This document shows, one piece after another, positions 2,860 to 16,941 of a stretch of DNA of 20,000 nucleotides. The translations under genes were made by a program, and so were the position numbers. Origin of the DNA: Thermoplasmatota archaeon (lineage in GTDB: Archaea > Thermoplasmatota > E2 > UBA202 > DSCA01); contig JAYEJS010000128.1 of the NCBI GenBank assembly GCA_034660695.1, positions 1 through 20,000 of the forward strand, given 5' to 3'. The notes beneath the pieces were generated by a model. That model was not told where the DNA came from, searched no databases, and worked only from the letters and a program-made list of their open reading frames with translations. Position 1 is the stretch's first letter; every line of letters begins with the position of its first letter.

Positions 2860-2872
2860 GACGTAAAAAAGA

Positions 2873-5776
<2,904 letters not shown>

Positions 5777-5805
5777 TCTCGTTAAACAGGTTGCGTATGC
5801 TTTAT

Positions 5806-6030
5806 GGGCTTGATGGTCATAGCAGCAGGGAAACACCCGGTCTCATCCCGAACCCGGAAGTTAAGCCTGCTACGTGCTATTGAGTACTATGGTGCGCGAG
5901 CCCATGGGAGAGATACCCTGAAAAGGGCCCGGGTCTATGGCTTAGGCGGAGAGCCCTGTTGTCCTTCGGGACTTCGGTGTAAACTCTGCTGTTTGAAGGC
6001 TATAGATCCTCGGTTTGCTATCAAGCCCTT
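5806..6030 (+). rRNA. 5S ribosomal RNA with a ~93-nt internal insertion
   Basis: Core TCATAGCAGCAGGGAAACACCCGGTCTCATCCCGAACCCGGAAGTTAAGCC...GAGTACTATGGTGCGCGAGCCCATGGGA. Helix I 5' strand GGGCTTGATGGT pairs over 12 bp only with GCTATCAAGCCC at 6017-6028. Confidence 0.8.
5911..6003 (+). other. Structured insertion within 5S rRNA
   Basis: Lies between ...CCCATGGGAG and AGATCCTCGG...; contains CCCU-GAAA-AGGG and GUCC-UUCG-GGAC hairpins; AGAT occurs at both edges so the boundary can slide. Confidence 0.65.
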
Positions 6031-6048
6031 CTTTTCATTTTTTGATTA
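6029..6048 (+). terminator. T-rich terminator of the rRNA operon
   Basis: TTCTTTTCATTTTTTGATTA immediately after the 5S 3' strand; the same tract follows all three downstream 5S-tail copies. Confidence 0.5.
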
Positions 6049-6132
6049 TTTTACACTTATATTTCTATGTCAACAATTTTGTTCATCAAAAACAGTATAA
6101 AGACGGATTGCATTATATTATTGGCGGAAAAA

Positions 6133-6777
6133 ATGAAAGGAAAAACAGCAATAGCATTGCTGATGGCTGGACTGTTCATCCTGCCAATTACAATGGGGCT
6201 ATTAGTAAACGCGATGCATTGGCCAGGTGAACCAAACGAATTGCAACCGCCATACCACTATCCAAAAAATATAGGGGATATCATCGCCGCTGAATGCCAC
6301 TGGCAAAAGAAAATAGGTCAAAACCGATGGGACCATGCTCTTATATACGTTGGAGAACTTGGAGATGATGATTGTGTAGAAGCCGATCCCCACATGGAAT
6401 ATGGATTCCCACAATATCTGTGGAAAGGCAAAGTTGAATACACGAGTATAAATAAGACACGCGACGATTATAGATGGGGGCATGCCCAAGCAGAAGTGGA
6501 CACAAGTCAGTCTATCAGGGATCATGCTGTAGAATTTGCAAAGGATAGAGCAGATCAGGAGAGGAAATTTGATTTCAGCTCCTCTGGTAATAGCAAACAA
6601 ATAGACGGTCCAACTTGGCTTCCAGCAGGCAAGTACTATTGCACCGAGATAGTATGGGCAGGCTATGCAGATGGAGGGAAAGACCTAGATCCAGGTTTGT
6701 ACAATCCCGTTTGGGTGGAGGAACTCATCTACCACAGCGATGTTGATATATACTGGCAGTGGGGTGGTCCTGACTAG
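6133..6777 (+). CDS. Secreted permuted papain-fold / YiiX-like (NlpC/P60 superfamily) candidate
   Basis: Signal-like MKGKTAIALLMAGLFILPITMG; motifs WDHALIYVG...CVEADP and YYCTEIVWAGY...LDPG. Start taken at 6133, not 6067, because upstream codons are in the duplicated leader. Confidence 0.6.
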   Translation: MKGKTAIALLMAGLFILPITMGLLVNAMHWPGEPNELQPPYHYPKNIGDIIAAECHWQKKIGQNRWDHALIYVGELGDDDCVEADPHMEYGFPQYLWKGKVEYTSINKTRDDYRWGHAQAEVDTSQSIRDHAVEFAKDRADQERKFDFSSSGNSKQIDGPTWLPAGKYYCTEIVWAGYADGGKDLDPGLYNPVWVEELIYHSDVDIYWQWGGPD

Positions 6778-6844: not shown

Positions 6845-8401
6845 ATGACAAAAAGGGGTAGAATGAAAAGAGAAATGATAAAGAAAGTTGTTATCATCCC
6901 AATAATTCTTATTCCTATACTAGTAATGGTTTCTTCATCGATGAATTTACAGGAGGGAAAAGAAAATGTTAACGAAGAATGGAACAAAACATTTGGAGGA
7001 AACTATAACGATAAAGCAGAATGGGTTGTACAAACAAATGATGGGGGGTATATTATTGCCGGATACACTGGTTCTTATGGAGCTGGAGACCTTGATTCGT
7101 GGATCATAAAGACTGATCCAAATGGAAATGAAATATGGAATAAATCATTTGGAGGAAAAAAAGAAGATGTTGCATACTGCGTTAGAGAGGTGAATGACGG
7201 AGGATATGTAGTTACAGGATACTCCCGTTCTTTTGGAAATGGAAGGGAAGATGTCTGGCTAATAAAAACAGATGAAAATGGAAATGAGGAATGGAATAAA
7301 ACATTTGGAGGAAAAGAAGGAGAATATGCATTATCTGTGATACAAGCAAAAGATGGTGGATATGTTATTGTAGGGAATACTGAATCTTATGGAGCTGGAG
7401 ATAAAGATATATGGCTAATAAAAACAGATGAAAATGGAAATGAGGAATGGAATAAAACATTTGGAGGAAGAGCTACAGAATTTGGAAATTACGTTATACA
7501 AACAAGAGATGGAAGATACGTTGTTGGAGGAGAAACTGAATCTTATGGTCATGGGAAATTAGATATATGGCTAATAAAAACAGATGAAAATGGAAATGAG
7601 GAATGGAATAAAACATTTGGAGGAAGTAGTATGGACAGAGGAGAGGACGTTATCCAAACAAAAGATGGTGGCTATGCGATTACTGGAGAATCAAGACCTC
7701 ATATAACGGTATGGGATGATGTCTTTCTCATAAAAACCAGTGAAAATGGAAATATGGAATGGATTAAGTCATTTGAAGGAATACATCAGGATCTCGGATA
7801 TTCCATCATCCAGACAAACGATGGATACCTAATTGGAGGAACGACACATTCTTATGGTGCTTCAGCTTTAGCAAATTTCAAGGCTTGGTTGATAAAAACA
7901 GATAAAGGTGGAAACGAGCAATGGAACAAAACATTTGGTAAAAGAGGAAGGGAATCAGCAGATTGTATCATACAAGCTAGCGATGGTAGCTACATATTTG
8001 TTGGAGGTACTGATAGTTATGGTGCTGGAAAGGAAGATGCATGGTTAGTAAAATGCCAGGATTATCCTCCTCCAAAAATAAAAATTGTGAAGCCAAGAAA
8101 AGGATGGCTTTACATATTTGATAGAAAAATAATTCCAATTGGAAAAACGATAATTTTAGGAGGAATTACAGTAAAAGTTGAGGGTTACGATTCTGAAGAA
8201 AAGATAAATAGAGTTGAATTTTATCTAGATACTCCAGAGGCTTATGAAAGAGAACCTAGAGCAATTATTTACGAACCTCCATATGAATGGAAATGGGATG
8301 AGCCAGCAATTGGCCCTTGCTTAATAACATCTGCAGCTTATTATGGTAATACCGAAGCTCATGCGGCCGATATAATAAATTTATGGATATTCAACATCTA
8401 A
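6845..8401 (+). CDS. Secreted ~52-aa tandem-repeat (probable beta-propeller) protein with C-terminal Ig-like domain
   Basis: About seven repeats of E-W-N-K-T/S-F-G-G...SYGAGDxDxWLIKTDENGNE; C-terminal PRKGWLYIFDRKIIPIGKTIILGGITVKVEGYDSEEKINRVEFYLD. Confidence 0.8.
   Translation: MTKRGRMKREMIKKVVIIPIILIPILVMVSSSMNLQEGKENVNEEWNKTFGGNYNDKAEWVVQTNDGGYIIAGYTGSYGAGDLDSWIIKTDPNGNEIWNKSFGGKKEDVAYCVREVNDGGYVVTGYSRSFGNGREDVWLIKTDENGNEEWNKTFGGKEGEYALSVIQAKDGGYVIVGNTESYGAGDKDIWLIKTDENGNEEWNKTFGGRATEFGNYVIQTRDGRYVVGGETESYGHGKLDIWLIKTDENGNEEWNKTFGGSSMDRGEDVIQTKDGGYAITGESRPHITVWDDVFLIKTSENGNMEWIKSFEGIHQDLGYSIIQTNDGYLIGGTTHSYGASALANFKAWLIKTDKGGNEQWNKTFGKRGRESADCIIQASDGSYIFVGGTDSYGAGKEDAWLVKCQDYPPPKIKIVKPRKGWLYIFDRKIIPIGKTIILGGITVKVEGYDSEEKINRVEFYLDTPEAYEREPRAIIYEPPYEWKWDEPAIGPCLITSAAYYGNTEAHAADIINLWIFNI
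7257..7627 (+). repeat. 156-bp tandem coding repeats
   Basis: ggctaataaaaacagatgaaaatggaaatgaggaatggaataaaacatttggagga occurs identically starting at 7257, 7413 and 7569. Confidence 0.85.
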
Positions 8402-8433: not shown

Positions 8434-8666
8434 GAGCCCATGGGAGAGATACCCTGAAAAGGGCCCGGGTCTATGGCTTAGGCGGAGAGCCCTGTTGTCC
8501 TTCGGGACTTCGGTGTAAACTCTGCTGTTTGAAGGCTATAGATCCTTGGTTTGCTATCAAGCCCTTCTTTTCATTTTTTGATTATTTTACACTTATATTT
8601 CTATGTCAACAATTTTGTTCATCAAAAACAGTATAAAGACGGATTGCATTATATTATTGGCGGAAA
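8434..8666 (+). repeat. 233-bp direct repeat, copy 2: truncated 5S tail + terminator + leader
   Basis: 232/233 identical to 5898..6130; lacks the first ~92 nt of 5S. Confidence 0.97.
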
Positions 8667-8667
8667 G

Positions 8668-9351
8668 ATGAAAAGAAAATATAAAACAATAGGTGTGTTG
8701 GTGGTGGTAGGGGTATTTGTTATACCGATGATGCCAGTAAAAGCTTGGACTCCTCCGGATGATGCAAGAGACATCGTTGTTACAGAATGCAAAGGAATTA
8801 GAGATCTGCCAGGTGAATTAGATCATACTGCAATATACGCTGGCAGTAACGAGATATTAGAAGCAGATCCACGTTTCGAGAAATGGAAACCATGGGAAAG
8901 ATGGCTTTATCCAACAAATCATAGGCGATTACATCAAAAATCATATTCTGGCAATGAAAACTATGGAAGAGCCGAAAGAGACGAGTTAGATGAATTATTT
9001 AATCCAAAATATTACAGCATACAAATATACCTAAGGGTACCGGATGCATACTCTGTTTTACCAGATATCGTTGATTTTGCACAAGATAAGGCGGATCGCA
9101 AATGGGTAGTAGGAGGAATACCAAATAAATCGAGGCCATTTGATTATATATCTTTTTGGAGTGAATACACAAAACAGGTAGACAACCCCAATGACCCGAA
9201 TTCTCTTGGATTTGGATATTATTGCTCAGAGCTAACATGGGCTGCATATAAATCAAAGGACTTCAACTTAGATCCCAATGGCAATGAAGTCAGACCGCAA
9301 GACATTTATGATAGCGATATAACTGAGGAATATAGAAGATACACAACATAA
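8668..9351 (+). CDS. Second secreted YiiX-like / permuted papain-fold candidate
   Basis: Signal-like MKRKYKTIGVLVVVGVFVIPMMPVKA; LDHTAIYAGSNEILEADP and YYCSELTWAAYKSKDFNLDP match motifs of the 6133..6777 product. Confidence 0.6.
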   Translation: MKRKYKTIGVLVVVGVFVIPMMPVKAWTPPDDARDIVVTECKGIRDLPGELDHTAIYAGSNEILEADPRFEKWKPWERWLYPTNHRRLHQKSYSGNENYGRAERDELDELFNPKYYSIQIYLRVPDAYSVLPDIVDFAQDKADRKWVVGGIPNKSRPFDYISFWSEYTKQVDNPNDPNSLGFGYYCSELTWAAYKSKDFNLDPNGNEVRPQDIYDSDITEEYRRYTT

Positions 9352-9389: not shown

Positions 9390-10912
9390 ATGAAAAAGAA
9401 AATGAAAAAAATAATAATTTCTCTTTGTATCGGAGTATTTGTAGTACTCATTCCGTCAATATCATTCAATTTAACTAAAGATTTAACTAAAGAGGAAGAC
9501 GAAGAATGGAATAAAATATATGGGGAAAGCTTTGCTGAAGCATATGACATTGAACAAACAAGTGATGGACATTTCATTATTGCAGGGCACACTAAAAATT
9601 GGACTGCATGGCTTCTAAAAATAGATAAACAAGGAAATGAAATATGGAATAAAACATATGGAGAAGGAATATTTTATAGCATTGTTGAGACAGAAAGTGG
9701 ATATACCATAGGCGGATATACTGAATCACGTGGAGCAGGAAAAGGAGACTTTTGGCTTGTTAAAGTGGATAAACAAGGAAATGAAATATGGAATAAAACA
9801 TATGGGGAGGGAAATATGGAATCGGTAAGAAAGGTTATATCAACAAAAGATAGATACCTTATGGTTGGAATAAAAAGGTATCCGCCTAGAGAGGATGGAT
9901 ACAGCGATTCTAATATTTGGCTTGTTAAAGTGGATAAACAAGGAAATGAAATATGGAATAAAACATATGGAGGGAATTGGACAGAAGATGGACAAGACAT
10001 TATAGAAATAGAAGATGGGTATTTAGTCTCAGGAAGAACATATTCATATGAAAAATATGGGGGGTGGGACACTTGGCTAATTAAAATAGATAAACAAGGA
10101 AATGAAATATGGAATAAAACATATGGATGGTGGGATTTCGAAACGGAAGCTTACATAATTGAAATAGAAGATGGTTACATGATTACGGGATCCACTCTTT
10201 CTACTTATGTAGGATTTTGCGTTGGGTATCTAATAAAAGTAAATAAGGCTGGGGAAGAAATATGGAGTAAAAAATATGGATATAAAGCAGAGAAATTTCG
10301 AGATATTTAAAAAATAGAAAATGGATATATTTTAGTAGGGCTTACTGAGGGATATGGTGTAGGAGATTTTGATGCTTGGCTTTTAAAAATAGATGAGGAA
10401 GGAAATGAAATATGGAATAAATCATTTGGAGGAAGAGGAAGAGATCGTGCTTATTCAATAGAAATAAAAAACGATAATTATTTTATTGTTGGAGAAAAAA
10501 TAGAAATGCATGGATTATAAAATGTGCTGATTATCTCCCACCTAAAATAAAAATAGTTAGACCAAAGGAAAATTATCTGTATATTTTTGATAGAGAAATA
10601 ATGCCATTTAACAAAACAATGGCACTCGGGAGCATCACTATAATTGCTGAAGTTTATAATCCTATAAATGGTACAATAAAAAGAGTAGAATTTTATCTTA
10701 CTTTTTCAGGGAGAAAATATGAATACGAGCCAAGAACAGTTTTATATTCTCCTCCATATGAATGGAAATTTGATGTGCAAACGATCTCGTTGTTCAGGCC
10801 AGTGGAAATTACCACTGCTGCCTACTATGAAAATGCAGGAGGAGTAGCAGTAGATAAAAAAGAGGTTTATATTATAAAGTTGGCGGCTTCTGTCTCTACC
10901 TTGCATTCATAA
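9390..10912 (+). pseudogene. Degraded secreted repeat protein, paralogue of 6845..8401
   Basis: 9390..10310 ends in in-frame TAA, after which the same frame continues KIENGYILVGLTEGYGVGDFDAWLLKIDEEGNEIWNKSFGG; a shift near 10520 is needed to reach KCADYLPPKIKIVRPKENYLYIFDREIMPFNKTMALGSITIIAEVYNP. Confidence 0.8.
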
Positions 10913-10948
10913 GGTTTGCTATCAAGCCCTTCTTTTCATTTTTTGATT
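10913..10948 (+). repeat. 5S-tail/terminator remnant, copy 3 (36 bp)
   Basis: GGTTTGCTATCAAGCCCTTCTTTTCATTTTTTGATT identical to 6012..6047. Confidence 0.93.
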
Positions 10949-11546: not shown

Positions 11547-11572
11547 TGCTATCAAGCCCTTCTTTTCATTTT
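11547..11572 (+). repeat. 5S-tail/terminator remnant, copy 4 (26 bp)
   Basis: TGCTATCAAGCCCTTCTTTTCATTTT identical to the segment beginning at 6016. Confidence 0.9.
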
Positions 11573-12079: not shown

Positions 12080-13450
12080 ATGTATCCAACGTTAGAAAAA
12101 AACATTGAGTTAAGGTTTCAACCAACAGAAGCAGAGGTAATAAATAGAGGGAAGTTAAACTTCACGGCGGTTAACGATGTTGGGGCGGAAATCCTTGCGA
12201 GTTGCGATGGGAAAACTCCTATTGATGAAATATGTAGGAGAATGGCCCAGAGACACGATGACACCGTTAGAAGGGTGAAACCGATTATTTTAAGGTTCCT
12301 AGAAAAGGCAGAGAAAAGAGGACATGTCTCCTTTCATGACATATCTCAAGATCATTGTGGCACTATCTCAGGCAGCCGAAAGTATTTTACGCCAATACAG
12401 GCGTCTGTAGAGCTTACTATGGCATGCAATCTTAAATGCAGACATTGCTACGCGAATTCGGGGACATCAAAATCCAACGAGCTCTCTACGGAAGAATTTT
12501 TAGATATCTTTAGCAAGCTTTACAAAGTAGGCGTTGTTAGAGTGACTCTTACGGGCGGAGAACCTTTGCTTCACAATGATCTTCCCGAAATCCTAGAATT
12601 TTGCTTCAAAAAATTTCATTTGCAATTACTGACAAACGGTATTGGCGTTACCGAAAAAATAGCAAGACAATTATCTAGGTATATAGTCACTACACAACTC
12701 AGTTTGGACGGAGATAACTCGAAAACACATGACTACATGAGGGGAAAGAAGGGGGTCTTCGAAAAAACCATTAAAGCGATTAAAATACTAGTCAGACATA
12801 GAGTACCCACAGTTGTTGCCATGTCGGTAACACCATTCAATATAGACCAAATTGAGGGATGTCTTCATCTTGCGCTAGATCTAGGGGTTGCAGGATTCAG
12901 GGTAGGGGGTTTAACCCCAACTGGAAGAGCAAAGGATCTTGGATGGGAATTAAATGAAGAAGAATATAACGGGGTAAGGAAAACCAGGAGGAAACTTGCG
13001 AATAAATACAAAGACCAAATTTGGGTAGAATCGGAGGAAAGCTTAATTACCGGGGAAGAACGGACTGAAAAATCAAATGATAGGAGGAAAATAACTGTTG
13101 AGACAAAAGATAAGCCAAGGAAAATTAAACCGAGAAATTGTGGCGCAGGTTATAGAATGTTAGTGATATCTCCTACTGGAGAGGTTAGACCATGCCCTAT
13201 TATAAGCGACGAAAGATTGGTTATTGGAAATATAAAGAACGAGGGCATCAAAAATATCTTAAATCATAGAATAGCAAAAACCTTGCCGGAAGTCATTGCT
13301 CCAATCAAAGAAATCTGTGGCGAATGCAAGTATTTTTATAGATGCGAAGGCTGCATAGGTACTGGCTTAGTACAATGTACGGAAATAGAAGATTGCAACT
13401 GGGCAAAAAAAGAATTAAGAAAATTACCAAAAGTTCAAGGGAAGTTTTAA
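12080..13450 (+). CDS. Radical SAM/SPASM peptide maturase with N-terminal PqqD-like domain
   Basis: PqqD-like LNFTAVNDVGAEILASCDGKTPIDEICRRMAQRHD; CNLKCRHCY motif; C-terminal Cys set CGAGYRMLVISPTGEVRPCP...CGECKYFYRCEGCIGTG...C...C. Confidence 0.88.
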   Translation: MYPTLEKNIELRFQPTEAEVINRGKLNFTAVNDVGAEILASCDGKTPIDEICRRMAQRHDDTVRRVKPIILRFLEKAEKRGHVSFHDISQDHCGTISGSRKYFTPIQASVELTMACNLKCRHCYANSGTSKSNELSTEEFLDIFSKLYKVGVVRVTLTGGEPLLHNDLPEILEFCFKKFHLQLLTNGIGVTEKIARQLSRYIVTTQLSLDGDNSKTHDYMRGKKGVFEKTIKAIKILVRHRVPTVVAMSVTPFNIDQIEGCLHLALDLGVAGFRVGGLTPTGRAKDLGWELNEEEYNGVRKTRRKLANKYKDQIWVESEESLITGEERTEKSNDRRKITVETKDKPRKIKPRNCGAGYRMLVISPTGEVRPCPIISDERLVIGNIKNEGIKNILNHRIAKTLPEVIAPIKEICGECKYFYRCEGCIGTGLVQCTEIEDCNWAKKELRKLPKVQGKF

Positions 13451-13484
13451 AAAGTTGTATGCGTTGGAAAGAAACATGGATAAG

Positions 13485-14880
13485 ATGAAGAAGTTAATGA
13501 AGATGATAGCCATTCCGATGGTGATACTATTATTATCTGCAAGCAGCATGACAAATATAGCTTGCAACGTAAAAATTAATCATCAGCTTCAACAATCAAT
13601 CGATGAAGTCGTACTTCAAACCAATTTCAAGCCTCATGTTGTTGTAGCTATGATAGATTCTGGCATAAATGTTTACCACGAGATATTCAGAAGAGAAGAT
13701 ATGGTGCAGCACCCTTCTACATATATTGGAGGATTTCCGGAAGATGCAGAGGCAATCAATTTAACTTTTGGTGATGATTGGGAAAGCAACTATGAGAATG
13801 ATAAGGAAATATGGGAAAACCTTGAAGAAAAAAAATTATACTGGTTTCCGCATACAAATATCATTGGCATATCCTTTGGGCAGTCAACTTGGTATGGAAG
13901 AGAAGAGCCTGGAGATCCTATTTTAGATGATGTTGGCCATGGAACAAGTACATCTTCTATTATAGAAAAAATAAATCCTAATGTAACAATTTTGATGGTT
14001 GAAACGGGAGGAAATAAACTGAAAGAGGCTTTGTCGTGGACAGTAAATCGGTCATGGATTGATATTATTGTTCCCGAGTTTGGTGTCTGGTATCGTCCAC
14101 GCATGCTTTTCTGGACAACAATTTGGTGGTCTGGCTTTCAAGAAATTTCCAAAAGAGGAGTGAAAAATGGAAAAATAATTGTTACAGCCGCTGGCAACAG
14201 ACCATGGATAATCCCAGAGCTTTCTTACATATCCGGACCACCATGGGTTATTTCCGTTGGAGGAGCAGAAGGATATTGTCATGGAATAGACTTATCGACA
14301 GCCAAAAGTGCTGACTACGTTTCAACATTTACGAGAAAAATTGCATTTCATTTTAATACATCAACATACTGGGTGGGGTCAGGAACAAGTTTATCTATTC
14401 CGACGGTAGCAGGTACGCTATCTTCAATCATTTTAAAGATAAGAGAGGAATTGAATGAATTATACCTATGGAATAAGGAATGGGGCATTGATTGATGTCC
14501 CAGAAGAAGGAATTCATATTACAAACTGGGATATAAGGAATACACTAAACCATACTGCCACCTATTGGAACACAAGTGATTGGAGTTTTTATGACTGGAT
14601 ATTTAAATGGCCATGTAGAAATGCAATTGATCCTTATACTGGTGAACCTGTTTCTTTATGGCTCAAAATTTTATTGAGGATAGTGACTGCAAATATCCCT
14701 GTAAACCCAGTTGCTCCTTGGCTACAAATGAGTTGGGGATTTGTGAATGAAAGCATAGTAAATGATACAATAGATGTTTTACTCGGCAAAAAAGAAATGC
14801 CGGAGAAACCAGAAGGGGCAATAAGATATATGGAAGCCATCTATAAAATTCGAGAAATGATTTGGAGAAGTTATTCATGA
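13485..14880 (+). CDS. Subtilisin-like (S8) serine protease with signal peptide, apparently frameshifted near 14455-14495
   Basis: Asp AMIDSGIN, His DVGHGTSTSS, Ser GSGTSLSIPTVAGT. ORF 13455..14495 overlaps 14455..14880, whose GIHITNWDIRNTLNHTA resembles the helix following the catalytic Ser. Confidence 0.75.
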
Positions 14881-14947
14881 TGGACAACATCGTACTATGC
14901 GGAATGAGCAATGATCAAAGAAATTTGTCGAGGTGAATTAAGAAACG

Positions 14948-15934
14948 ATGTCAGCGATCATAACCACTGATTTAATAAAGAAATACAAAACCTCCTTTTC
15001 CCTTAAAAAACTCTTAGGAAAAAGAGATTTTATCCAGGAGACAGTAGCATTGAATGGCCTTTCATTTTCGGTTGGTGAAGGAGAAATCTACGGGATTTTA
15101 GGTCCAAATGGAGCTGGTAAAACCACTTTAATCAAAGTCTTAGCAACGATATTGTTGCCAGATGGTGGGGATGTTGAAATCCTTGGCTATAAGTTGCCTA
15201 GAGATGAAAAGAAAGTGAAAGATTTAATTGGTTTAAGCCTTGGGGAATATGAAAGAACATTCCAATGGAGGATAACTGGGAAACAAAATTTAGAATTCTT
15301 TGCAGCATTATTTGGCACACCGAAAAACTCTGTAAAAGATAAGATAGATGAGGTTTTATCTCTAGTTGGCTTAGAAGATAAAGCAGACACGTTGTTTTTG
15401 GAATATTCCACCGGCATGAAACACAAGCTAGCTATTGCTAGAGCATTACTTAATGATCCAGAGGTATTGCTCTTCGATGAACCAACAGCTGGTCTAGATG
15501 CTAAAACATCAAGAGAGGTTGGTAATTTTATAAGAACATTAACAAAAAATGGTACAACCATTATCTATACGACCCATCGCCTAGAAGAAGCTGGGAATCT
15601 CTGTGATAGAATTTTAATTTTAAATCAGGGGAAAAAGGTTGCGGAAGAGAGCCCAACCAATTTGAAAAAACTTGCTAGTGAAACAGAGGTTTTGCAAATA
15701 GAATTGAATGAGGTTAACGATTTATTGTTAGAGCAAATCCAAAATCTAGATGGAATTAAGGATGTTTACCTGACCGGCCCAAGGATAATAAGAATTCATT
15801 GTAACCAAATAAACGGGTCGATATATTCAATTTTGGATTTGATAAAATCAAAAGACGTAAAGATAAACCAAATATATTCTTTCACGCCATCCGTACAGGA
15901 TGCATTCCTAAAATTGACTGGTGAAGAAAAATGA
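14948..15934 (+). CDS. ABC transporter ATP-binding protein (exporter type)
   Basis: Walker A GPNGAGKTT, signature region STGMKHKLAIARAL, Walker B EVLLFDEPTAGLD. Confidence 0.95.
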   Translation: MSAIITTDLIKKYKTSFSLKKLLGKRDFIQETVALNGLSFSVGEGEIYGILGPNGAGKTTLIKVLATILLPDGGDVEILGYKLPRDEKKVKDLIGLSLGEYERTFQWRITGKQNLEFFAALFGTPKNSVKDKIDEVLSLVGLEDKADTLFLEYSTGMKHKLAIARALLNDPEVLLFDEPTAGLDAKTSREVGNFIRTLTKNGTTIIYTTHRLEEAGNLCDRILILNQGKKVAEESPTNLKKLASETEVLQIELNEVNDLLLEQIQNLDGIKDVYLTGPRIIRIHCNQINGSIYSILDLIKSKDVKINQIYSFTPSVQDAFLKLTGEEK

Positions 15935-16941
15935 AAAAGTTAATATTAATTTCTTTAGGTATCGAAATACCAATCTTTATCATGGTCTTGCTGTCAATAG
16001 CCTTGAACTACAATCCACAAGATTTCATATCGATCGCTCCTTATATTTTGCCGTTTATACTAATTTTCTCGTCTTTAACATTGATATGGTTTTTAATGGG
16101 AAAAAGTGGCTCTTTTCGGGTAACATATGCATTTATTAAAAGAAGGTTTCAAGTTTTCACATCTTACAAGTTTCAAATAATATTTACTATTTTTAATATC
16201 TTTTTAATGGTCATCATTTTTTATATTGTTGGCAAGCCTTTCGTAGAGATAATGTTTGCTTCTATGTCTGGTGGATTGCTAAATTATGGTGGATACGATT
16301 TTCTTACCTTCATCATCGTGGGCATGATAGCATGGCCCATGCTTTTGTCTGGCTACAGTATTGCCTCGCGTAAGATAAGACAGGAGCAATATACCGGTAT
16401 GTTCGAAATAATGATTCCAACAAAATATGGGGTGAAAGTTTTGCCATTTGCCTCCTTATTGACAGGAACATTAAGCTCTATCACAATGACGATATCTAGT
16501 TTGTTAGTCATAATTTTTCTCTTGCATGTCGACCTAAAATTAGGTAATCCCCTTGCTTTATTGGGATTAATCAGCATTATAATCCTCTCTCTTCTGACTA
16601 TGTGGGAACTGGGCTTAATATTTGGTGGATTGACGGCGATTTATAAACAACTTGGACCAGTTAGCTCAATCCTCCAAACAATAATGATGTTTTTTTGTGG
16701 GATTTACATCCCAGTACAAATATTGCCAGCTTATATTAAGCCATTATCTTATGCCCTTCCTTTGACATACGCCTTTAGAGCTATCAGGGCAAGTATGATA
16801 AGTGGGCAGGGTATAATGGATTACTTGTGGGATGTGATCGTCCTATTTATTTTCTGCGTTATAATGGTTATAGGCGGATACATAGTGTTTACTAAACTTC
16901 TGGACAAAGCCAGGAAATATGGAACAGTTTATGGCTATTGA
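15931..16941 (+). CDS. ABC-2 type transporter permease
   Basis: Multiple hydrophobic spans, 4-nt overlap with the ATPase gene, YALPLTYAFRAIRASMISG near the C terminus as in ABC-2 permeases. Confidence 0.88.
   Translation: MKKLILISLGIEIPIFIMVLLSIALNYNPQDFISIAPYILPFILIFSSLTLIWFLMGKSGSFRVTYAFIKRRFQVFTSYKFQIIFTIFNIFLMVIIFYIVGKPFVEIMFASMSGGLLNYGGYDFLTFIIVGMIAWPMLLSGYSIASRKIRQEQYTGMFEIMIPTKYGVKVLPFASLLTGTLSSITMTISSLLVIIFLLHVDLKLGNPLALLGLISIIILSLLTMWELGLIFGGLTAIYKQLGPVSSILQTIMMFFCGIYIPVQILPAYIKPLSYALPLTYAFRAIRASMISGQGIMDYLWDVIVLFIFCVIMVIGGYIVFTKLLDKARKYGTVYGY

Follow-up and report, generated by a model that had tools for sequence, protein, structure and literature searches.

Large expansions of archaeal 5S rRNA are known from Halococcus and Halalkalicoccus (Luehrsen, 1981; Tirumalai, 2020; Stepanov and Fox, 2021). 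The Halococcus insertion is retained in the mature 5S rRNA, where it forms a four-way junction (PMC7530397; PMC7812874), and cryo-EM of Halococcus reveals a flexible arm alongside this junction, with the core preserved (PMC7530397). In H. morrhuae the insert lies between U104 and G105, corresponding to C108/G109 of H. marismortui (PMC7530397), and the Halococcus-type insertion has been assigned to core positions 104.1/105 (PMC7812874). The only systematic survey recorded large archaeal 5S expansions solely in four haloarchaeal genera, all of the order Halobacteriales (PMC7812874), and we found no published report of a 5S expansion in Thermoplasmatota, or in any archaeon outside Halobacteriales. 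The sequences analyzed here support a widespread case of predicted 5S expansion segments at the Halococcus site, in a different phylum.

The window, i.e., the whole 20,000-nt stretch of Thermoplasmatota DNA that was analyzed (contig JAYEJS010000128.1), contains an rRNA operon in the order 16S, tRNA-Ala, 23S, 5S and oligo-T tract, in which the 5S is the distal gene. Rfam places the 16S at 1113-2629, a weak tRNA match at 2678-2746, the 23S at 2865-5784, and the 5S (RF00001) at 5809-5926 on the forward strand. The 16S is 85% identical to that of Thermoplasmatales archaeon JdFR-43, a member of the Thermoplasmatota, in keeping with the impression of a preliminary description of this DNA that the organism is not haloarchaeal. 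The Thermoprofundales, an abundant sediment group, include JdFR-43 in their subgroup B (PMC9585477).

The preliminary description had proposed a 5S rRNA of about 225 nt with a large insertion, closed by a 12-bp partner at 6017-6028 just before a T-rich terminator, and both proposals hold. The gene runs from 5806 to 6028 (forward strand, 223 nt), a reading based on the Rfam matches to 16S, 23S and 5S, the MFE fold, full-length homologs and covariation in 32 genes. Its helix I consists of the 5′ strand GGGCTTGATGGT (5806-5817) and the 3′ strand GCTATCAAGCCC (6017-6028), which form 12 bp, including two G-U pairs, and CTTCTTTTCATTTTTT comes immediately 3′. The 5′ strand is recognizable from the sequence GGGCTTGATRG, which occurs once on the forward strand of the window, and the 3′ strand is where the 5S truly ends, in alignment with the 3′ terminus of insertion-free genes such as that of JdFR-43. 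Helix I is part of the MFE fold of 5806-6028, at −96.5 kcal/mol (z = −4.15, with none of 200 shuffles as good). The oligo-T tract beyond it (TTCTTTTCATTTTTTGAT, 6029-6046, forward strand) is the probable operon terminator; the same T-rich flank also lies 3′ of the 5S of an uncultured Thermoplasmatales archaeon (L071) and of the insertion-free 5S of JdFR-43.

Annotation of this gene with Rfam yields a false 3′ end. The RF00001 match scores 81.5 bits, against a gathering threshold of 38, despite its mis-set 3′ end; the match extends to the end of the model (position 120) at 5926, and CCCUGAAAAGG, a stretch within the insertion, is mistaken for the 3′ strand of helix I. Read literally, this match would have the 5S end near 5926, with 5927-6028 as either trailer sequence 3′ of it or a small RNA of its own. 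We regard that reading as improbable to the point of being nearly negligible: five of the nine helix I pairs in the Rfam alignment are flagged as non-standard, the 6017-6028 strand makes a 12-bp helix that covaries in 32 sequences, the outer three base pairs of helix V (6012-6014 with 5876-5878) lie beyond the insertion and also covary, and the same annotation artefact is documented, as an identical misannotation in every archaeal expanded 5S gene examined, in PMC7812874. Score, terminal helix I, helices II-V, loops C and E, and operon-distal context all place the locus in the 5S family (RF00001). Together these observations support reading 5806-6028 as a complete 5S gene interrupted internally by a large insertion.

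The limits of the insertion were set by comparison with insertion-free 5S genes, namely those of JdFR-43 (L037), L038, L042, L064, and L105, of which the alignment took four, without L038. In these genes the sequence GGGA(A/G)N is followed directly by the six nucleotides of the helix V 3′ strand and then by helix I. In the window, homologs and site mapping place the insertion at 5915-6011 (97 nt, forward strand), a segment missing from JdFR-43, L042, L105, and L064. The preliminary description had excised about 93 nt (5911-6003); its limits were a few bases off, although removal of an insert does restore a normal 5S, as judged from both the insertion-free relatives and refolding, when the cuts are made at 5915 and 6011. 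In silico deletion of 5915-6011 leaves a 126-nt RNA with the canonical 5S fold (−51.4 kcal/mol), in which GAU and GGU together pair with GCUAUU as helix V. The 5′ strand of this outer part of helix V, GCUAUU, occupies 5876-5881, the first half of the 3′ strand, GAU, occupies 5912-5914 and adjoins the 5′ side of the insertion, and the second half, GGU, occupies 6012-6014 and adjoins its 3′ side. In the alignment of 32 representatives, columns 237-239 (GGU) pair with columns 76-78, and covariation was seen for columns 76-239, 78-237, and 81-112; G5912 covaries with U5881, columns 76-239 are paired in 32 of 32 sequences and columns 81-112 in 31 of 32, each with four pair types. These covarying columns independently place the insertion within the 3′ strand of helix V, which it splits between the third and fourth nucleotides, three base pairs from loop E.

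The insertion point thus lies between U5914 and G6012. In a global alignment of the insertion-deleted window 5S with the 5S of H. marismortui (sequence from PMC3413140, in which positions 108/109 are C/G within GGGAAACCC|GGUUC), C108 falls on U5914 and G109 on G6012, and the insertion site is therefore identical to the Halococcus site; the earlier suggestion had been of a similar site only.

The segment appears to fold on itself, and the alignment of 32 representatives of related 5S genes (alignment A1) gives this fold strong comparative support. RNAalifold predicted 58 pairs, and compensatory changes occur in 37. When the four helix V pairs were added (62 in total), 95.4% of cells were standard pairs, as compared with 29-50% when the partners were slid by one to three columns; double changes occurred in 40 of the 62 pairs, and none of 500 shuffles reached any of five measures. 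Helix I itself (columns 4-16 with 242-254, where 5806-5817 and 6017-6028 are columns 5-16 and 242-253) is 95% paired, with double changes in 7 of 13 pairs, and it closes across the insertion far beyond chance. The relatives accordingly keep the 6017-6028 partner and co-vary with it, which answers the question, raised at the outset, of whether close relatives would lack this distal strand.

Within the segment, the first element is hairpin A (CCCU-GAAA-AGGG, 5916-5927, forward strand), in which compensatory changes affect each of the four pairs and 99% of cells are paired; the loop differs in size and sequence among relatives. Stem B follows, with its 5′ strand at 5931-5942 and its 3′ strand at 5998-6009 (helices 8 and 9 of the pair count); all eight of the pairs counted show double changes. 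Two alternative pairings of the insertion edges had been suggested: GGGUCUAU/AUAGAUCC, which is stem B, covaries, whereas GAG(A)GAU/AUCCUC finds no support across relatives. Beyond stem B, positions 5943-5951 hold the conserved UA of a YUAGG motif and the 5′ strand of an inner helix (columns 153-158 with 207-212), recognized by column composition and covariation; this helix is 98% paired, with double changes in five of six pairs. The arm ends in the hairpin GUCC-UUCG-GGAC (5961-5972), whose three counted pairs (columns 180-182 with 189-191) all covary and whose UUCGG is almost invariant. The GAAA and UUCG hairpins noticed at first reading are therefore both real. The 3′ side of the distal arm (5979-5997) comprises GUAAAC, the 3′ strand of the inner helix, and a conserved 8-nt loop strand, GUUUGAAG.

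Several unpaired bases of the segment are also fully or almost fully conserved. A5944 is near-invariant and G5945 invariant (YUAGG), A5982 (GUAAAC) is invariant, and within GYUUGAAR G5991 is invariant and A5996-A5997 are kept in 30 of 32 sequences. Covarying helices together with invariant unpaired bases indicate selection on the sequence of the insert as well as on its fold. Scanning the insert against Rfam at E ≤ 10 returned only noise (XIST A repeat at 15 bits, PhotoRC-I at 8 bits). Among known motifs, kink-turn, 11-nt tetraloop receptor, and sarcin-ricin motifs were rejected for the conserved loops, as each lacks a required base or fits only part of the subgroups. A UAA/GAN motif (G5951 A5952 G5953 with U5980 A5981 A5982) misfits the soil group and was set aside as a general motif; it fits about three quarters of the sequences (GAG in 24 of 32, the UAA columns in 25-32 of 32) and serves as a lead only. 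A GNRA tetraloop-receptor role for hairpin A was likewise set aside, the loop being GAAA or GCAA in the close relatives of the window only.

To what extent the segment is shared was assessed with two scans. A genome scan with an insertion-blind 34-mer 5S core pattern gave at least 120 loci, mostly bacterial, with 12 archaeal loci among the matches listed. The 34-nt helix III/loop C sequence (CACCCGGTCYCATCCCGAACCCGGAAGTTAAGCC) recurs unchanged in the 5S of many Actinomycetota (Nocardioides, Actinomadura, Spirillospora) and Chloroflexota, and this identity across domains makes the scan unspecific. An insertion of about 100 nt, in the same place and with the same layout, was present in 7 of the 12 archaeal loci among the matches listed: those of an uncultured Thermoplasmatales archaeon (L071), a Thermoplasmata archaeon (L059), four soil MAGs (L043, L057, L088, and L104), and L078. 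Those of the seven MAGs that are named to class are Thermoplasmata/Thermoplasmatales. The other 5 of the 12 listed (JdFR-43, L042, L064, L105, and L038) are insertion-free. A metagenome scan, with a pattern of the loop E sequence, 95-125 unspecified bases, and GCYRTCA, gave at least 120 matches; at least about 110 true 5S genes among those listed reduce to 80 unique sequences and 35 clusters at 90% identity, and their gap lengths, mostly 105-119 nt, correspond to inserts of about 95-109 nt. Together, at least about 110 related 5S genes carry the homologous module, from 7 archaeal MAGs and about 100 metagenome contigs.

Among the closest relatives listed, L171 is 95.7% identical to the window in 16S and 93.8% in 23S, and L138 is 94.4% identical in 16S and 94.6% in 23S, while insertion-bearing contigs extend down to 78.6% 16S identity. 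Among the matches listed, JdFR-43 is the only relative in the range of 78-96% 16S identity to the window that is without the segment. As judged from this sequence divergence (it spans 16S identities to the window of no more than 78-96%), the segment is evidently old. JdFR-43 has a clean canonical 5S of 121 nt (positions 37-157 of L037, minus strand), and in a midpoint-rooted 16S neighbor-joining tree it falls among insertion-bearing lineages, with 85-87% identity to both flanking groups. This placement suggests, weakly, as there is one insertion-free tip and no outgroup, that the segment was secondarily and precisely lost in JdFR-43. A canonical 5S amid insertion-bearing lineages implies that the segment can be precisely removed at the DNA level, or that it was gained more than once. 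Two related loci are aberrant: in an expanded 5S of L166 (7927-8148) the 5′ strand of stem B is about 12 nt short, and in L234 (6730-6963) unrelated sequence replaces the first ∼45 nt of the 5S. Both could be assembly artefacts or decaying copies.

The same operon carries two further inserts, in its 16S and tRNA-Ala genes. The 16S insert (45 nt, 1568-1612) interrupts the universally conserved 530 loop (GTGCCA|tctg…gcataa|GCCGCCGCGGTAA) and is probably a mini-intron with a bulge-helix-bulge (BHB) motif: at the 1567/1613 junction, 4/4 central, 3/3 exon-helix, and 2/3 intron-helix pairs can form, and the predicted cuts restore the canonical sequence, GUGCCA|GCCGCC, exactly. It was found only in the window, L171 (45 nt), and L138 (40 nt), being missing from 11 other related 16S genes, and has conserved ends and a variable middle. 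The insert sits in the 515F primer site and would block 515F priming on DNA; the 16S intron of the window's genus thus probably hides these organisms from standard amplicon surveys. The tRNA-Ala (UGC) gene (2675-2767) has about 21 extra nucleotides in its T-loop, at about 2733-2753, with a BHB-like motif, and was missed by ARAGORN, with an Rfam score of only 29.3 bits. An insert of 17 to about 45 nt occurs at the same spot in eight relatives (L171, L138, L210, JdFR-43, L140, L144, and L203 among them) and in none of five others (L185, L232, L157, L217, and L182). The T-loop insert is, by these sequence features, a predicted tRNA intron at a non-canonical position; cleavage at 2732/2754, where the motif scores (3,3,3), would give a 7-nt T-loop. 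Genuine introns in this lineage are thus marked by BHB junctions, by interiors that vary freely, and by patchy occurrence.

With two such introns in the operon, splicing machinery acts on the transcript, and an unconventional excision of the 5S insert becomes conceivable: the 97 nt would be an intervening sequence cut from the 5S precursor, the ends being religated, as for an intron, or the two pieces being held together by helices I and V. The precisely insertion-free gene of JdFR-43 agrees with this account, and PMC7812874 states that only experiment separates expansion segments from excised inserts. The account was weighed using a BHB score (a central helix of 4, an exon helix of 3, and an intron helix of 3) at registers that restore the mature sequence; a free BHB scan was non-discriminating, random boxes in the 23S reaching 12-13 of 14, and the register-fixed test was used instead. 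At the 5S junction (5914/6012) the scores are (1,1,2) and (2,2,1) of (4,3,3), i.e., no BHB motif, and registers one base to either side have no complete BHB, the best being 5915/6013 with (3,3,2); both control introns, at (4,3,2) and (3,3,3), have one. Nor does any covarying pairing join the two insert boundaries in the 32-sequence alignment. The interior, unpaired bases included, is kept among relatives of 78-96% 16S identity, whereas the introns here have conserved ends and variable middles. The 5S segment therefore lacks both a restoring motif and the combination of conserved junctions, variable interior, and sporadic presence that characterizes BHB introns. Finally, the sole experimentally studied insertion at this exact site, that of Halococcus, is retained. 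Excision is on this evidence an unlikely account. The missing BHB motif, the conserved interior, the non-sporadic presence, and the retained Halococcus insert at the same nucleotide favor a retained segment, and we consider it likely, by analogy with Halococcus and from the absence of splicing signals, that the 97 nt stay in the mature RNA as an expansion segment that would form a four-way junction in helix V.

A further consideration is raised by a truncated second copy of the 3′ part of the 5S at 8434-8564 (forward strand; nhmmer match 8450-8546), which takes in everything from the helix IV 3′ strand to the helix I 3′ strand, the entire expansion included. Without the 5′ 92 nt of the 5S, this copy must be a pseudogene fragment. 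It belongs to a direct repeat of 246 nt (5898-6143 and 8434-8679, 98% identity), in which the repeated unit is the 3′ 131 nt of the 5S, whole expansion included, with 115 nt downstream, and the repeat at 8434-8679 is itself part of a tandem duplication of about 2.5 kb of downstream genes. The fragment resembles 5S remnants with insertions that PMC7812874 describes at the ends of rRNA operons, and one might take the gene at 5806-6028 for a decaying pseudogene as well, disrupted by its insertion, with the working 5S elsewhere in the genome. This is very unlikely, as the core helices and conserved loops of 5806-6028 are all intact, the gene is in operon position, and it keeps both 5S termini, whereas a pseudogene remnant is marked by terminal loss; moreover, structural selection acts on the inserted form in over 30 sequence clusters, and no second 5S core was found in the window or in any retrieved related contig, each having one full 5S. 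A second copy of the expansion was likewise absent from all related contigs. The gene at 5806-6028 is thus best read as a functional 5S.

Further traces of this region recur downstream. A 26-nt unit, TGCTATCAAGCCCTTCTTTTCATTTT, which covers the helix I 3′ strand and oligo-T, occurs again at 10917-10942 and 11547-11572, after two further ORFs, and a piece of the 5S 3′ end seems, from these repeats, to have been propagated as a terminator module. Two ORFs, 6845-8401 and 9390-10912, encode paralogous secreted or surface proteins with ∼52-aa (156-nt) tandem repeats (motif NGNEEWNKTFGG…DGGY), and a smaller paralogous gene lies upstream of each (6067-6777 and 8551-9351). Further on, 12080-16941 is a gene cluster resembling a peptide-maturation (RiPP-type) locus; by the Pfam labels in the gene table of L001, it includes a PqqD, radical SAM, and SPASM protein (12080-13450), a faint S8-peptidase-like protein (13455-14495) followed by a small ORF, an ABC ATPase (14948-15934), and an ABC-2 permease (15931-16941).

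Taken together, we propose that 5806-6028 is one functional 223-nt 5S rRNA carrying a 97-nt segment (5915-6011) in the 3′ strand of helix V. The segment is predicted, with covariation in support, to fold on itself into two arms, a short hairpin and a long bent arm, the latter made up of stem B, a conserved asymmetric internal loop, the inner helix, a second conserved loop, and the UUCG tip. With the two halves of helix V, these arms make up a predicted four-way junction, and helices I-V, loop C, and loop E are preserved. By analogy with Halococcus, the segment would stay in the mature RNA, the expanded 5S would bind its proteins and enter the central protuberance, and the arm would project from the ribosome surface as it does there. 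The invariant unpaired bases may serve as a docking site for rRNA or protein, and the invariant internal loops offer a concrete target for studies of function. The segment appears to be old and to have been lost in some lineages such as JdFR-43. More tentatively, it may be an ancient constrained module, present in the ancestor of much of Thermoplasmatota, Thermoprofundales included, homologous to the Halococcus segment, with loops that dock a central-protuberance partner; we hold this wider view to be possible but doubtful. If it were true, homology to the Halococcus segment would mean that a 5S module passed from one archaeal phylum to another or that the two segments descend from a deep common ancestor.

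Among known systems, archaeal BHB introns in rRNA and tRNA genes are, like the 5S segment, small inserts in stable-RNA genes, and two of them occur in this operon; the 5S segment differs in being without a BHB motif, conserved in its interior, and not sporadic. The bacterial 5S expansions of Thermoanaerobacterium and relatives, Peptococcaceae, Halanaerobiales, and Pseudoalteromonas (PMC7812874) are also self-folding modules on an intact core, and some of those genomes have truncated, insertion-bearing 5S remnants downstream of the operon, comparable to 8434-8564 here. Most of the bacterial expansions are shorter (the range across bacteria and archaea is 13-109 nt; PMC7812874), the best-described type lies elsewhere, in the helix III bulge (PMC7812874), and their distribution is patchy even within species, often beside normal copies (PMC7812874).

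The closest likeness is to the Halococcus/Halalkalicoccus type (Luehrsen, 1981; Tirumalai, 2020, PMC7530397; Stepanov and Fox, 2021, PMC7812874). The site, C108|G109 (core 104.1/105), is identical, and the size is similar, at 108 nt there and 97 nt here (95-109 nt in relatives). Extensive internal pairing, a four-way junction, and a preserved core are common to both, the structure here being predicted from sequence, and the features of the Halococcus type (an insert of about 100 nt, internal pairing, a predicted four-way junction, and an intact core) are all found here, with covariation in support. Both are also mis-truncated by annotation in the same way; Rfam-based annotation gives each such gene a false 3′ end, so that databases under-report expanded 5S genes. 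The host is different, a non-halophilic member of the Thermoplasmatota and not of the Halobacteriales, and the distribution is wider: the Halococcus type is confined to a few haloarchaeal genera, whereas the segment described here spans a deeper divergence (down to 78% 16S identity to the window). Retention is proven for Halococcus and proposed here, and the likeness is one of site, size, and predicted fold. The position in helix V may thus be a repeatedly used permissive site, or else the landing place of a module moving between lineages. In either case, sediments, hydrothermal systems, and soils have yielded over 30 sequence clusters from a phylum other than that of Halococcus in which this kind of expansion sits at the very same nucleotide.
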